Assembly (NCBI GenBank): GCA_027319565.1
Contig: DAHVNA010000006.1
Location: 1 to 57,378, forward strand
DNA from: Elusimicrobiota bacterium
GTDB lineage: Bacteria > Elusimicrobiota > Elusimicrobia > UBA1565 > UBA9628
Length of the DNA: 57,378 nucleotides
Direction of reading: 5' to 3'
How positions within the stretch are numbered: the first letter of the stretch is position 1; each line of letters opens with the position of its first letter. Position numbers: made by a program. Below, piece after piece: positions 19,801-43,800 of the stretch.

Positions 19801-22800
19801 CCGCTTCCGGCTTCAACTAAAAGACTGTCGGCATGGCCGTGATAAGCCCCGGTAAACTTCACGATTAAATCGCGTCCAGTCGCCGCGCGCGCCAAGCGCA
19901 AGGCGCTCATGACGGCCTCGGTCCCGGAGCTGGTCAGCCTCACCAGTTCAAGACTTGGAATCGCTTTTTTCAAAACCTCGGCCAGCTCGATTTCAGTTTC
20001 GGTGGGAAGGCCAAAAGTGGAGCCTCGTTCTAACGCCAAGGCCGCAGCGTTAAGAACTTCTTTTCGAGCATGTCCTAAAATCAAGGGACCCCAGGAAAGG
20101 CAATAGTCGATGTACTTGTTTCCATCCACGTCCCAGATTTTGCTGCCTTTGGCGCGCGAGATAAAACGGGGAACGCCGCCGACGGATTTAAACGCCCGCA
20201 CGGGAGAATTGACTCCGCCGACTAAAACTTTTTGGGCGCGGTTAAACAGGCGGCGGGAATTCTCTGTTTTCTGCAACCGCGCACATCCGTCATTCCGACG
20301 TAAGCTCTCCCCTGTCATTCCGGCGAAAGCCGGAATCCAGATACTGGACCCCGGCTTACGGATTGCCGGGGTGACAAAGGAAGTCTTTATTTTTCTTTGA
20401 GCCATTGGGCCGCGGAAAGGGCGTGATAGGTGATGATAAAATCGGCGCCGGCGCGCTTAATGGATGTTAAAAGTTCGAGAGCCGCTTTCTTTTCATCCAG
20501 CCAGCCGTTTTGGGCGGCGGCCTTAATCATCGCGTATTCTCCAGAAACGCTGTAAGCCGCCAAGGGAAAATCAAAACGCGCCCGCGCTTCTCTTAAAATA
20601 TCTAAATTCGGCAAGGCGGGCTTGACCATCAGCATATCAGCCCCCTCCAAGGCGTCCAAAGAAATTTCGCGCAGAGCCTCCCTGAAATTGGATGGATCCA
20701 TTTGATGGGTTAAGCGATCCCCGAATTTCGGAGCGGACTCAACGGCATCCCGAAAGGGCCCATAAAAAGCGCTGGCGGTTTTAGCGGCATAGGCCAAAAT
20801 CGGCATCATTTCAAAACTGGCTTTGTCTAAAGCCAAACGAATGGATGAGACTTGCCCGTCCATCATGCCTGACGGCGCGATCACGTCAAAACCGGCTTCC
20901 GCTTGAGACACCGCGGTTCTGGCATAAAGCTTCAGCGTCTCGTCGTTCAAAATTTTGTCTCCTTTAAGAACTCCACAATGACCATGATCCGTGTATTCAC
21001 ACAGGCACAAGTCCGCAATCAGACAGAGATCGGGATATTTTTTTTTAATCCGGCGAGCCGCCTCTTGGACAATGCCGTTTTTGGCGTAAGCTCCCGAACC
21101 CAAAGAATCTTTTTGATCCGGAATTCCAAAAAGAATCACGGCGCCGACTCCGGCCTCAACCGCCTTAGCTACAGGCTCCATCAAAGAGTCAATTGAATAC
21201 TGGAATTGCCCCGGAAGAGACGGAATTTCCGAACGAACTCCGCGACCCGGGCGAACAAAAAAAGGCATGACCAAATCGGCGGCATTGAGCTCCGTTTCTC
21301 GAATTAATTTCCGCAACTGGGGAGTTTGGCGAAGCCGACGCAAACGGGTTTGAGGAAAGGTCATGTCCTATTTTACAAATTAGGGAGCGGAACCTTTCCA
21401 AATCACCTCGGGCTCTTTGAGGACCTTGTTGGCCCAGCGCGCGGCGGTAAAAAGGTAATCGGACAGCCGATTTAAATAAATGACGGCGCTTTTGAGAGAA
21501 GGACCTTGTTCGTCAATTTCACAAAGGCTTCTCTCAGCTCGTCGGCAAACCGCGCGCGATAAAAAAAGCCGCGAGGCGATCTCAGAGCCTCCGGGCAGAA
21601 TAAAATTTTTGAGAGTCTCCAAAGACTCGGTCATCTCATCAATCTCTTTTTCCAACTCAGAGACCCATTGGTCGAAATGGGGATCTCCTTTTTCTTTTTC
21701 CGAAGCGACCGCGGCTCCCAATTCAAAAAGGCAATTCTGAATGCGCTCAAGCGGAAAAGCCAAGGCCGCGGCCTTGGCTTCGGATTTGATCGCCCGAAGG
21801 GCCCACCCCAAGGCGGAATTTAATTCATCCAAATCTCCGCAGGCTTTGATCCGGGGATGATGTTTCGGCACGCGTTTGCCGCCGATAAGCCCCGTCTCTC
21901 CCAAGTCCCCGGTTTTGGTGTAAATCTTCACCTTCTTATTTTGGCAAATTTAATGGCCAAATATTTATTGTAGAATCAAGTGAATGGAATTAATCTCGAC
22001 GGAATTTCGCTGCAACAACCGCTGCGTCTTTTGCGCTCAAGACGGTTTACCCGCCGAAAAATTCTCGAAAGACGAGCAGGATTTAATCGCAAAAGCAAAG
22101 GCCGCTTGTCAAAAAGATTCCACAATCGCCTTTGTGGGCGGAGAGCCCACTCTTCATGAAGGACTAATTCCGGCGGTCTCGGCCGCGAAAGCATTCGGAG
22201 CCGCTTACGTTCTCATTCAAACGAATGGCCGCCGCTTGGCCTATTCTTCTTTCACTCAAAATCTGAAAAATGCGGGCGCCGATGCCCTGGATATTTCCCT
22301 TCAAGGATCGACCGGGGATATGCATGATTATCACACCCAGACGCCCGGGAGTTGGGCGCAGACTATTTTGGGAATTAAGCACGCGCGCAAAGCCGGTTTT
22401 CGCGTCGGCATTTCAACCGTAATTACGCGCTCTAATTTTAGGCACTTAAGCGAAATCGCGCATTTGGTTCACCGCTTGGGAGCGGAAGCTTTCCATTTGA
22501 GCTTGGCCATGCCCTACGGTCGCGCCGGCAAATCGTGGGCAAGAGTGATCCCTTTAGCGGAAATGGCGCGGCCCCATCTGACAGAAGCCCTCAACCTTTC
22601 TAAATCCTTGGGGCTTAAAACCGAATTGGGACACGCCTTCTCTGAAACCACCAGCCCGCTGTTTGCGGGAATAGGCCCCTATCAGCGCGGGGAGTTAGAA
22701 ACAGCCTCCCACTCAAAAAAATCGGGCGACGCCTCCTACGCAAGACCCAAGCCGGGGCTTCGCGAACGCCGCGGACCGCCCAAAACTGGGACAAAACTCA

Positions 22801-40800: not shown

Positions 40801-43800
40801 TTACATTCGGTTTATGCTGGAGGATCGCATATTCTCCGTCAAAAAATAGAAGAATTCCAATGGTCTAATATTCAATATGGGGTTTTCCTGGCGTGGAATG
40901 TTATTGCATTCGTAGTTCTTTCTCAATATATTTTTGTGTTGGCTCCGACTAATTTTCAAGGTCTTTTGCGGCTGGTATTTTATTTCCTTTTGTTTATGGC
41001 CTGGAGCAAAGCTCCTCAGTTTTTAAAGCAATCATTTTTATCTATTGGGATGCTGTTATTGATCGTGGTACTAGGTAAAATATTCCATCAAAATATCCTG
41101 AGTTCTATTGGAATTGCGGCGGCATCCTCCCTCGTATTTTTCATTCTGTTCTCATTAATACGTTTTGCCTTGAATTTATTGGATTTAGGCCAAATCGTTT
41201 CTTGCCCTATTGGGCAGTTGAAACAAGGGGATGTGTTGAGTCTCGATTCATGGAAATATGTGGTTCAGGCTTGCAAAGAGGTGGACCCTGGATTTCTGTC
41301 AACTCGTTACGCGGATGGCCTTTCGAGTGAAGAGGTTCGGTTTATTCAGAAATGTTGTCCATTGGAATTAGACAAAGTCTTGCAAGTTTTTCAGACTCGC
41401 CCCTTTGCTTTTTGGATTTTTTTGGGTACAGTTTTGACTCTCTGCACTCGCGGCACGGTATTGCGCCACATCTTATCCATTATGGGACGCTAAACGCAGG
41501 TTTTTCATCGGTTGCAAAGTGATTTTAGTGCTTTGCTTTGGGATATTGATTGCTGTAGGTGAAGGGGCTTTATATAAGGCAGGGCTCTTTTGCAAATACC
41601 ACGGGCTTCTTTGTCTTTTCCGAAGCTGCGGTTGATTGAAATGAGTGAAATGGCCGCCTCCGTTGCCTGTGGATCAATGGATAATACCCTTTTAAAATCA
41701 CGAACTGCTTGATCTGAATATCCGGAGAGATACTCACAAACACCGAGATCGTTAAGGTAAGTGGTGTTTTTAGGATTTTCTTTTACGATTAATTGAAAAA
41801 GGGGAAGAGCTCTTGTATAGCGTCCGAGATTTTGTTCAACTAGCGCAAGAGAATGCTTCGCTTCTAAGGCATGGGGGAATTGTGCAATGGCGGACTTCAA
41901 AATGGAAATCGCAACCTTGGGATGATGTTGTGTTAATGTAATTCTAGCCAATTGATAGCGTGCAAATAGGAGGTTCGGGTTTTCTCTGATTAGTTCTTTG
42001 TAAATCTCTGCCGCCAGTGGTAGATTATCATTATTTATGCATTGAGAAGCAAGATCAACTCTCGGGTCCGCTTGCCAGAAAAAACGGCGGTGAAACTGCT
42101 TAAAGATATCAAGAGCTTGTCGCGAGTTTCCGATATCTTCTTCGAGTTCCCCAAATCTCTTAAGCAAGTCTGCATTATTGGGATCACTCTTGACCGCTTT
42201 CTCTAGAAGCGTAATGGCTTGGCCAAAGTGCTTCTTTCTAGTGAGTTGATTTATGAGCTTGAGATTATTTGGGTTGCGCATTTGTCGATTTGGTTGGGTA
42301 TCAATGGAAGAGTAGCTTTCGGAACTGTTATTTTTATAAGAGATGGGAGGTGTCTGCGGAAAAATTTTTATTTTTTGGTAGCTAATAGCGATTCCAGTAA
42401 TCGTAAGAAATCCCAAAAAAATAAAAACTTTAATGCGATATCTTGATTGCATGAGTTGTCCAGATATAAATGCGTTCCGTTTGGGGATCATCCTGGGGCA
42501 AAAAGACCGCACGCAGCGCGCAGAGAATGAAGAGCGCGTAAAGCGGAGAATTGATGACTTGAAAATAGCGAAGGACTCCATCAATCATGCCTAAGCTAAT
42601 CCCAAAGAGAATGCGGGCAAATGAAGAGCTTGGGGTGGTCATGGGATCTGTGATCATAAAAAAGGTAACCAACATAAAAGCCGCCCCGGTAGCGGGAGCA
42701 AGCGTCGTGATCAACGGCCAACCAGAGATAAGGCTTCTTAAAACCGCTATGATCAAAAACGTCCCAAGCCAACTTAAGCAAAGAGTCAATCTTTTGACGC
42801 GGGTAGCGATCAAAAATCCCAAAATCGCGACACCCGCCATCGCCCAAATACTTCCGCCCCAACGTCCTGGGACGACATCCATAAAATGTCCCAGCAAAAG
42901 AAGCCCTGTTACTATTCCGAAATTACTGGGATTGAAAATAGGCCTCGCCTTATCGGGAGTTCTCAAAAAATGTTTCGAAAAAATTGATATCGCGCTGACG
43001 GCCGCATAAGGCCAAACGAACGGGGAATCACAAAGAAGAACGCAACTGAGAGAAGTTAAGAGTCCGCTGAGGGGAAGTATAATAACGTCTCGCAAAAAGT
43101 ACTGGAGCGTGAAATCAAGCGAGATTGCAGTCGCGACCGCGGCAATCCATTGACTCGGCAAACGATGAAAACCGGGAGAGATTAGGGCATAGAGATTAAA
43201 GCAGAGGCTAAAGGCCAAAAATGGCCATCTAGGGTCTCTGGATTTTGGGATTTGTATAGTCTTATTTTTAAGCACGGGGTTCTTGGATGAGATGATAGCG
43301 ATCAATTTTAAATTGTTTTAGAGCTTGTCCTTTAAATATCTGTTTGATTCCGCTGGGCCAAAGAACCTCGATTTTTTGGATGTCAGGGTTTTTCCCAAGC
43401 CCAAAATGAAGCCTCGGGTCCGATTCCGACATAAAGCCGTTGGCGGGCTCAAGCTCGCGGCTCATGGTCTTTGACCCGTTTTTGACTCGTATGATGGTTT
43501 CAAATCCATCACGGTTGCTTTTAGTTCCCACCAGCGTAAAACCGATCCAGTGATTTAAATTTTTCGTCTCATTGAGGTAGAAATGAAGCGGCTGCCCGAC
43601 ATTGGCGATTAAAAAGCCAATGCGACCGTTGTTCATAGCGTCGATGGCGGCAACGCCGCGGCCATCGGAAAAATCGCGGCCCAATCCGACTAAATCCGTT
43701 ACGTCTTCAAAGGATGTTCCAAGATTGCGGAAGACGCACTTTTGCTGGTAGCCGTCAAGAGATGTGTTCCCCTCGGCCGGCCATCGGGATGCGTTGGCGG

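Follow-up and report, generated by a model that had tools for sequence, protein, structure and literature searches.

A His-Gly-Ser repeat peptide cluster of Elusimicrobiota with many HxsC-like radical SAM enzymes and, in relatives, group VI nitrogenase-like genes

A gene cluster within a 57,378-nucleotide stretch of Elusimicrobiota DNA (here called the window; genome G000, 2.03 Mb, 91.65% complete) most likely makes a small His-Gly-Ser peptide that about ten radical enzymes modify and a membrane protease clips. We put the probability that this is a RiPP-type pathway of the HxsA4 branch of the His-Xaa-Ser family at roughly 0.6. In relatives the same cluster holds a group VI nitrogenase-like enzyme, which suggests that this enzyme works on a peptide and not on the pigment-like cofactor proposed so far.

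The genes that a preliminary description had placed in one stretch (21984..41493) are real, with HxsD, HxsD-like, HxsB, HxsA4 and the aKG-HExxH hydroxylase all above NCBIfam cut-offs. The stretch is not a single one, however, but two units differing in GC content (21380-26265, 0.512; 27429-41493, 0.433), the second of which ties for the lowest value among 205 genome windows of 14 kb (mean 0.496, sd 0.013). The features, all on the + strand, are:

21984..22856, +, HxsC-like radical SAM enzyme, 290 aa, no auxiliary Cys (best NCBIfam match, tree)
22856..25000, +, fusion of two HxsC-like radical SAM domains, 714 aa (Pfam, NCBIfam)
25000..26265, +, aKG-dependent HExxH peptide beta-hydroxylase (TIGR04267 99.4 bits, cut-off 40)
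26308..27267, +, protein of no known character (N-terminus conserved, C-terminus variable)
27429..27914, +, HxsD (TIGR03976 61.6 bits, cut-off 50)
27911..28111, +, HxsD-like, 66 aa from the ATG at 27911 (NF038315 47.9 bits, cut-off 41)
28108..29589, +, HxsB radical SAM/SPASM maturase (TIGR03978 492 bits, cut-off 370)
29608..29943, +, HxsA4 precursor (NF038313 87.9 bits, cut-off 55)
29830..29928, +, eleven tandem H-x-S triplets (9-bp DNA repeat at 29848-29930)
29948..30979, +, Cys-rich protein, 343 aa, 16 Cys (start resembles a signal peptide; no family)
30957..32438, +, HemN-like pseudo radical SAM protein (no CxxxCxxC, no Pfam Radical_SAM match)
32426..33952, +, HemN-like (class C type) radical SAM enzyme (Pfam, NCBIfam)
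33804..34904, +, HxsC-like radical SAM enzyme, true start maybe downstream (NCBIfam, alignment)
34808..35917, +, HxsC-like radical SAM enzyme (NCBIfam)
35929..36918, +, HxsC4-like radical SAM enzyme (142 bits against a cut-off of 500, match over the full length)
36959..37900, +, short radical SAM enzyme (N-terminal half related to RiPP maturases)
37888..38883, +, HxsC-like radical SAM enzyme (NCBIfam, alignment)
38870..40354, +, HemN-like radical SAM enzyme (PDB matches HemN and methyltransferase NocN)
40351..41493, +, FlaK-like GxGD (A24) membrane aspartyl protease (fold match, two invariant Asp)

The hydroxylase matched 22NU (E = 1e-10) and ChlH (E = 2e-4) in the PDB. The 21984-26265 trio is kept in place in G003, a genome in which HxsB, HxsA4, HxsD and the protease all lack a match, and lies next to the cluster in just 2 of 6 congeners; its genes may therefore serve another substrate. 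The 26308..27267 gene, often upstream of hxsD in relatives yet found also where the cluster is missing, is a doubtful member. The Cys-rich gene comes after hxsA4 in G001, G002 and G018 as well.

The HxsA4 precursor has a basic N-terminus, a conserved FLxSEE(A/G)K leader motif (probably for recognition), a hydrophobic segment (36-50), an AxA site and a core ending in (HxS)11-HGAW. The 11 H-x-S repeats reported for this 111-aa peptide, nine of them HGS, were confirmed and all are tandem; codon variation within the nine HGS units is synonymous, and a six-frame search of the 2.03-Mb genome found no other run of at least three H-x-S. Its score to TIGR03979 (HxsA) was 21 bits against a cut-off of 121.65. 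Gene order in the window is D, D-like, B, A4 rather than D-B-C-A, and loci titled Elusimicrobia or Myxococcota show the same succession of HxsD, HxsD-like, HxsB and HGS peptide, with HxsB, HxsD and HxsD-like as the invariant core. HxsB itself has ten Cys including a SPASM-type set, 5WGG as its nearest solved relative (E = 2e-16), and scores of 43-54 bits, far below cut-offs, against YhhB, GrrM/OscB and AmcB. Relatives of HxsB were recovered in 26 of the 41 genomes of the order at E ≤ 1e-40, in agreement with the earlier count, and at least four CxxxCxxC proteins accompany 21 of the 22 precursor loci that have at least 5 kb of downstream DNA, which upholds the view that this is a divergent system of the His-Xaa-Ser kind, its battery of enzymes varying around a single repeat peptide.

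The earlier claim that HxsC is absent stands by cut-off only: the best TIGR03977 (HxsC) score was 159.6 bits (the two-domain fusion) against 267.9, and the best HxsC4 score 175 bits (again the fusion) against 500, a threshold that none of 17 C-like relatives exceeded (best 180.6). HxsC or HxsC4 is nonetheless the best NCBIfam match for seven radical SAM domains of the window, including the 33804, 34808, 35929 and 37888 enzymes; for these and the 36959 enzyme the labels PqqE-like, MoaA-like and TigE-like were not confirmed. In an alignment, six annotated HxsC and the seven domains correspond at the core and at LC...CxxCxxxxxC; all four auxiliary Cys are kept in five of the seven, the first is missing in the second domain of the 22856 fusion, and the 21984 enzyme has none. 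Canonical HxsC nests within a clade holding all seven (FastTree support 0.85), and HxsC's own 16-tip clade contains none of them; comparison with HxsC found neither its N-terminal extension nor a SISDWK motif in the window enzymes. Replacement of HxsC is thus not borne out: since the seven domains match HxsC/HxsC4 best and share auxiliary Cys with HxsC, HxsC-like enzymes have been expanded, not replaced. In other genera, the two halves of the fusion are separate genes beside the protease. The clade of the 21984 enzyme takes in a gene adjoining NflH in other clusters, and also a gene on contig C32 that adjoins an AhbD-like gene with no peptide there, which means that C-like enzymes also occur outside Hxs clusters.

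Twelve radical SAM domains in 11 genes had been counted; the number is 11 cluster-binding domains in 10 genes, because the 30957-32438 protein has no CxxxCxxC and no Pfam Radical_SAM match. All of the eight further radical SAM genes listed downstream are present, this one without the motif, which is also lost in its G001 and G002 orthologues. The 36959 enzyme was considered as a cyclopropyl synthase, TigE having a GYW motif and a SPASM domain according to the available part of PMC10878394, and rejected: it has neither the motif nor the domain, with only two Cys after the radical SAM motif and the SPASM cysteines absent. The train might instead be an accumulation of paralogues, many of them redundant or in decay, so that the peptide is handled only by the Hxs core and one or two C-like enzymes; in favour of this, the number and order of genes differ even between members of the genus, the cluster motif is gone from one gene and the three HemN-like genes are 29-41% identical to one another. 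We regard this as very improbable, given that all reading frames of the train are intact and closely spaced, that orthologues in different congeners retain 45-75% identity and that the motif-less gene is itself conserved.

Neither the membrane protease nor the relatives' nitrogenase-like genes figured in the preliminary description. FlaK (3S0X) ranked first for the protease among 48,161 chains (Z 11.2, rmsd 3.6, 172 aligned; next Z 6.7), and Asp20 and Asp89 are invariant in 17 of 17 members. Pfam Peptidase_A24 gave 19.5 bits against a cut-off of 26.5, with 12 of the 17 members matching (best E 9e-6). Within the 41-genome order sample the protease is present in 26/26 HxsB genomes and 2/15 others, some matches being distant from the precursor, by about 105 kb in G012 and 68 kb in G034. 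Outside that sample it was found in all 16 genomes with an SEE(G/A)-K precursor leader, a leader present in 0 of 26 genomes without the protease; it is therefore the likely leader peptidase of HxsA4.

In three congeners (G001, G002, G004) a group VI nitrogenase-like NflD-NflK-NflH trio lies inside the same gene train, after the orthologue of the 34808 gene; in the window that gene ends 11 bases ahead of the 35929 gene, and the window genome (91.65% complete) gave no NflH, NflD or NflK match. The congener trio carries Pfam Fer4_NifH and Oxidored_nitro, lies below the nifH and CfbC cut-offs (NflH 288 bits to CfbC) and is of the same family as the Nfl genes of a record named in the group VI literature. 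In that record, titled GWA2_69_24 (bioRxiv 10.1101/765248), a single 55-kb cluster unites the Nfl genes, two hxsB, hxsA4 and the protease. HxsB occurs in 49 of 50 NflK genomes and, in two evenly drawn phylum samples, in 20/20 (background 19/181) and 9/10 (background 15/191), although such counts overstate linkage because kin are not independent. On a shared contig NflK and HxsB are mostly 2-40 kb apart, and at L152/L153 the order is hxsD, hxsD-like, hxsB, nflH, nflD, nflK, HGS peptide; G095, G104 and G127 carry NflDK on contigs without NflH or radical SAM neighbours.

Group VI enzymes have been published as probable tetrapyrrole reductases (Meheust et al., bioRxiv 10.1101/765248; PMC13474568), and a July 2026 review titles their section "Unknown Cofactor Synthesis" (PMC13474568). 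"Hxs" is absent from the main texts of both papers, "peptide" from that of the former and "RiPP" from that of the latter. A small-molecule pathway, in which the product of the radical SAM train and NflHDK is a cofactor, tetrapyrrole-like or otherwise, and the Hxs core is a linked module, metal chaperone or sacrificial His-Gly-Ser source, would fit the HemN-like and B12-binding radical SAM genes, the NflH score to CfbC, weak TP_methylase matches in 3 of 91 neighbour proteins, the C-like gene beside an AhbD-like gene on C32, and hemL, hemB and cobalamin adenosyltransferase directly upstream in the window. Yet no chelatase or HemC/D/E family was found among the 91 scanned neighbours (43 without any family), hemL/hemB do not come after the adenosyltransferase in G001, Nfl genes are nearly limited to HxsB genomes and can lie between hxsB and the peptide gene, and HemN-like and B12 enzymes act on peptides too (the NocN match; one neighbour has KedN5 and a RiPP C-methyltransferase as its best matches). 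We consider the cofactor pathway quite unlikely, and give even odds to group VI Nfl being RiPP tailoring enzymes of HxsA4-type His-Gly-Ser clusters, in which ATP-driven low-potential electrons would reduce the radical-SAM-modified peptide, the FlaK-like GxGD protease would be the RiPP leader peptidase, and the imidazole peptide produced in Elusimicrobiota, Myxococcota and some other deltaproteobacterial genomes would be poly-modified and anchored in the membrane.

In the proposed pathway, HxsB with HxsD and HxsD-like would most probably form a His-Ser cross-link within each H-x-S triplet, by analogy with three-residue cyclophane enzymes; a radical SAM-made His5-Ser7 cyclophane (His-Ala-Ser) is described in the available part of PMC12912966. 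The HxsC-like set, HemN-like C1-transfer enzymes and HExxH hydroxylase would then decorate the repeats, ChlH being described, in the portion of PMC12636437 available, as hydroxylating His/Asp on a cyclophane scaffold. In sister clusters the linked NflHDK may add an ATP-driven reduction of the modified peptide, a step that the window genome's version would go without. From its fold and co-occurrence, the FlaK-like protease is predicted to cut off the charged N-terminus between SEE(A/G) and K, so that the hydrophobic anchor with its poly-imidazole tail would remain in the cell envelope, conceivably as a multivalent metal- or anion-binding peptide. Against this pathway, ten enzymes would find few distinct sites on one 53-residue peptide whose repeat is three letters long.

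Defence islands are often low in GC and variably present, and the block is low in GC and missing from the same site in G003. An envelope barrier as in canonical HXS, where the exported peptide blocks phage DNA entry and a variable battery diversifies against phage counter-measures, would also agree with the hydrophobic leader (of which Myxococcota-titled relatives have an intact twin-arginine form) and with the HxsB, HxsD and H-x-S repeats common to the system in the available sections of PMC13128918. It is unlikely and was not borne out: a Pfam search found no peptidoglycan-binding domain in the precursor, the core has no Lys or Arg (predicted charge +0.9 at pH 7, +11.8 at pH 5), no specific defence gene was found at the locus (PADLOC matches, among 30 of the window's genes, were generic only: radical SAM, kinase, protease, nuclease), and the clusters, 15-55 kb long and containing methyltransferases as well as halogenase-like, carbamoyl- and glycosyltransferases, resemble natural-product pathways.

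What group VI nitrogenase-like enzymes act on has been a standing question since 2020, and a gene-encoded, hence testable, candidate can now be named; as three congeners hold the trio at a defined position and the window genome does not, the latter serves naturally as a control without the reductase. If true, the proposal would bring peptides within the reach of nitrogenase-family chemistry and give RiPP biology a leader protease of the prepilin-peptidase type. The clusters are a dense source of radical SAM chemistry still to be explored and may help account for the +8 Da (+C, -4H) modification of canonical HXS.

Compared with anti-phage HxsABCD, as far as the available sections of PMC13128918 describe it, the cluster has in common HxsB and HxsD above their cut-offs, H-x-S repeats and a precursor predicted to be processed at its N-terminus and targeted to the envelope, but has HxsA4 with a neutral HGS core and C-terminal Trp and no peptidoglycan-binding domain, seven HxsC-like domains with no HxsC over cut-off, and additional HxsD-like, HemN-like, HExxH and protease genes. 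HXS-like systems do occur outside Pseudomonadota, as had been proposed, which is not itself new (annotated hxsB/hxsC loci lie on Nostoc and Adhaeribacter plasmids). Against the NCBIfam entries named HxsA4, HxsC4 and HxsD-like (NF038313, NF038332, NF038315), HxsA4 and HxsD-like pass and HxsC4 (cut-off 500) does not, so the peptide class is already catalogued; none of the papers listed in a literature search contained the names HxsA4 or HxsC4. Group VI NFL loci (bioRxiv 10.1101/765248) likewise place NifH/D/K paralogues, in Elusimicrobia and Myxococcales, among many radical SAM genes, of which some are HemN- or B12-type, with a tetrapyrrole cofactor proposed there; the window genome differs in having no Nfl match. 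Triceptides with aKG-HExxH tailoring combine triplets of the aromatic-X-X type with a SPASM maturase and an HExxH enzyme, and motif, maturase and HExxH enzyme occur here too (11 H-x-S; HxsB; the 25000..26265 hydroxylase), but HxsB is a family of its own, tandem triplets number 8-59 rather than a few, the leader is membrane-targeted and the cross-link is predicted. FlaK/prepilin peptidases (A24, GxGD) share the fold and two invariant aspartates with the protease, which scores below the Pfam cut-off, has a larger membrane insert and would act on a RiPP precursor instead of pilin or archaellin.

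The stretch 21984-41493 is one run of tightly packed open frames on the forward strand and constitutes a real feature. Its principal parts, with some genes named by start coordinate only, are as follows.

21984, + strand: radical SAM (rSAM) gene, first of an upstream trio
22856, + strand: two-domain rSAM fusion
25000, + strand: aKG-HExxH hydroxylase
27429-27914, + strand: HxsD
27911-28111, + strand: HxsD-like protein
28108-29589, + strand: HxsB
29608-29943, + strand: HxsA4 precursor peptide
30957, + strand: HemN-like gene
33804, 34808, 35929 and 37888, + strand: rSAM genes of the downstream train
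40351-41493, + strand: protease, last gene

HxsD, the HxsD-like protein, HxsB, HxsA4 and the aKG-HExxH hydroxylase all scored above NCBIfam cut-offs, confirming the identities in the preliminary description. Its repeat count was reproduced: in the 111-aa precursor H-x-S is repeated in tandem 11 times, nine times as HGS, and the window genome has no other such run. Of the 12 rSAM domains in 11 genes originally counted, 11 domains in 10 genes have CxxxCxxC at the rSAM position; 30957 lacks the motif, as do its orthologues in two congeners. The variable rSAM battery proposed around the peptide recurs elsewhere, at least four CxxxCxxC proteins being found at 21 and an HxsC-like gene at 19 of 22 precursor loci (nine loci with less than 5 kb of downstream DNA were left out); since genes at these loci were called with a simple script, individual calls may be wrong. 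Promoter and terminator scans performed no better than chance, or below it. ESM Atlas matches for 26308 and 29948 were to unnamed clusters only (under 0.9), the HxsD model reached pLDDT 80, and modelling HxsB together with residues 5-62 of the precursor gave a score of 0.02, which speaks neither for nor against binding.

The preliminary description held that HxsC was missing and its step replaced, while allowing that a neighbouring rSAM gene might be a diverged HxsC. The TigE, PqqE and MoaA names given to train genes were discarded on NCBIfam scores and motif inspection: HxsC4 or HxsC was the best NCBIfam match, always below cut-off, for 33804, 34808, 35929 and 37888, as well as for 21984 and two stretches of 22856. 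Alignment with six annotated plasmid HxsC proteins revealed a common core, and the full LC...CxxCxxxxxC set in five of the seven window domains; the window domains lack the HxsC N-terminal extension and SISDWK motif. A FastTree phylogeny of 206 domains (393 before removal of near-duplicates), picked by a profile built from HxsC-like proteins and therefore thin in outgroups, placed the six HxsC and all seven window domains in one 171-tip clade (support 0.85). Because the 10 closest relatives of HxsC were domains of other HxsA4 clusters, none from the window, the window has no HxsC orthologue, yet its enzymes share the subfamily. Judged from these relationships, HxsC-like enzymes were expanded, not replaced. 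Elsewhere in the window genome (contig C32, ~11000-14000; L238:5024-8020), three more rSAM genes stand together among Fnr-type regulators: one is HxsC4-like and belongs to the 21984 clade (165 bits; probably g01214 of the preliminary description), one is AhbD-like (398 bits) and one is unassigned; no H-x-S peptide was found beside them.

The protease has two aspartates invariant in 17/17 relatives. Compared with 48,161 chains in a wide structural search, its model (pLDDT 81) came closest to FlaK, a GxGD protease (Z 11.2 and rmsd 3.6 over 172 aligned residues, against Z 6.7 for the runner-up), although the tool warns that helical proteins may reach such Z by chance; in agreement, Pfam A24 matches occurred in 12 of 17 family members. 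Foldseek of the model and a sequence search, both against the PDB, returned nothing significant. Within the order sample, each of the 26 HxsB genomes has the gene, as do 2 of the remaining 15; in both of these, contigs break off inside the cluster, and one (G004) had no HxsD match either. Precursor leaders in genomes reached via Nfl (group VI nitrogenase-like) searches are of three kinds: a hydrophobic segment is combined with SEE(G/A)K, combined with twin arginines, or missing. The SEEGK leader occurred in 16/16 protease-positive genomes with a visible leader and in 0/26 protease-negative genomes, one of which has REEGK followed by twin arginines; leaders were read from the best loci per genome, the genomes represent a few lineages, and the count leaves out G127 and G044 (leader not visible), G042 (weak match without a locus) and the four or five genomes in which HxsA4 had no match. 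The FlaK-like protease would thus cut the window precursor between A29 and K30. We take FLxSEE(G/A) to resemble prepilin cleavage sites; none of 17 precursors matched Flp pilin or SbtA models at E ≤ 10.

In three relatives (G001, G002, G004), the orthologues of 34808 and 35929 flank NflD-, NflK- and NflH-like genes; Nfl had no match in the window genome. Scanning GTDB contigs with an NflK alignment gave at least 76 loci from the best 80 of 97 matches, and 49 of 50 genomes tested from these loci encode HxsB (one or more of the 50 were already in the order sample); the exception carries HxsD pieces at two contig ends. HxsB occurred in 20/20 NflK genomes versus 19/181 others among 201 genomes drawn evenly from the phylum to which a Myxococcales-titled record belongs, none of them in the NflK alignment, and in 9/10 versus 15/191 among 201 genomes of the window's phylum, some of which were. 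The Fisher value for the link was 4e-17, ignoring kinship. When on one contig (9/20 and 8/9 genomes), NflK and HxsB were 2-40 kb apart. Two loci (L152, L153) read hxsD, hxsD-like, hxsB, nflH, nflD, nflK, HGS peptide; on one 4.45-Mb contig Nfl and HxsB lie ~30 kb apart, inside a single rSAM cluster that includes an HGS peptide; and the record titled GWA2_69_24 (named in bioRxiv 10.1101/765248) holds both modules in one 55-kb cluster. Against the link, NflDK stand alone on other contigs in G095, G104 and G127, and G150, where 25 kb separate HxsB from Nfl, gave no match to HxsA4. The link holds in one direction: Nfl is missing from many HxsA4 clusters, the window's included. NflH-NflD fusions of 750-800 aa, and as many as five NflD/NflK pairs no more than 45 kb from a single hxsA4, were seen at L074, L076, L077, L083 and G089:C33. 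Sections of Meheust et al. (bioRxiv 10.1101/765248) describe NifH paralogues of group VI with as many as 13 rSAM genes around them and predict a tetrapyrrole cofactor, a prediction repeated in part of a 2026 review (PMC13474568). In full-text literature, mostly outside subscription journals, we found no paper tying nitrogenase-like enzymes to a RiPP precursor, nor group VI NFL or A24 proteases to His-Xaa-Ser peptides.

What is shown comprises an invariant core, conservation of the leader motif and of the C-terminal end, the fold of the protease and the co-occurrences, and a pathway can be proposed around these. HxsB would cross-link His with Ser in each triplet, by analogy with the His5-Ser7 cyclophane described in sections of PMC12912966, and the HExxH enzyme would then hydroxylate, like ChlH (in part of PMC12636437). 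PDB matches of the HExxH enzyme support the ChlH comparison. HemN-like enzymes, one with a PDB match to NocN, would transfer C1 units, which is class C rSAM chemistry. Such transfer is consistent with +C/-4H, the modification that passages of PMC13128918 report on canonical HxsA. NflHDK, where present, would reduce an unsaturated or heteroaromatic intermediate. Among 136 unlabelled neighbouring proteins of other clusters, 91 were scanned: 43 had no family, and B12 rSAM enzymes, halogenase-like proteins and methyl-, carbamoyl- and glycosyltransferases were among those identified.

After its AxA site the window precursor has 13 His and lacks Lys, Arg, Asp and Glu, and relatives have about 8 to 59 repeats. 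The predicted product is an envelope peptide, whose function we would guess to be the binding of metal or anions; anti-phage activity is possible. Variants include two adjoining precursors of 35 and 59 H-x-S repeats without hydrophobic leader (L211; G234:C104:64252-67515), three HxsA4 matches side by side (G061:C16) and H-x-N repeats (HGNHGNHGNHSN) instead of H-x-S (L045:13101-13523). Tandem HxsD-HxsB repeats, with two full HxsB and a degenerate third, precede one precursor ending HCRGGWC-x-PRC at L050, L052, L053, L058, L059 and L069.

The stretch, initially described as one island, has two histories: GC is 0.512 at 21380-26265 versus 0.433 at 27429-41493 (genome mean 0.496), and congener G003 keeps the trio where the Hxs block is missing. 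The G003 sequence passes directly from window position 26205 to about 47775, leaving out 21.5 kb that contain that block. The trio is also retained in G001, G004 and G005, and neither edge of the segment missing in G003 (26.3-47.8 kb) holds a tRNA. Within this segment, 41505-47699 on the opposite strand encodes TPR, RnfD/NQR2-like membrane, ASPIC/FG-GAP and cytochrome c554-domain proteins and a CMD/AhpD-like gene, which come after the cluster on that strand in G001 too. Divergent from the first rSAM gene lie hemL, hemB and a cob(I)alamin adenosyltransferase gene (18978-21931), of which only the adenosyltransferase adjacency is retained in G001. Four kilobases upstream of the cluster, 16006-18042 holds two short genes that resemble a toxin-antitoxin pair, together with a 448-aa frame resembling an insertion-sequence transposase; this frame had no match in Pfam, NCBIfam or PADLOC. 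The 26308-27267 family (conserved N-terminus, variable C-terminus) also occurs at L087:5069-7120 and L066; it stands in two or three tandem copies beside Hxs clusters in G018 and G036, with a partial second copy on G000:C15 of the window genome. At L031:6088-8953 (G002), UDP-galactopyranose mutase, MiaB-type rSAM and ankyrin genes interrupt the HemN-like train.

PADLOC matches to viperin were taken as generic rSAM similarity. In sections of the TvgB and TigE papers (PMC9062424, PMC10878394), HxsB/HxsC appear only as annotated families or are absent. The weight of the finding lies in the protease-leader coupling and in proposing for the group VI nitrogenase-like enzymes a different role that can be tested, not in the anti-phage reading. 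The preliminary description saw a divergent HXS system; the cluster does belong to the catalogued HxsA4 branch, but it differs from the anti-phage HXS system as defined in HxsC, in the HxsA domain and in gene order.
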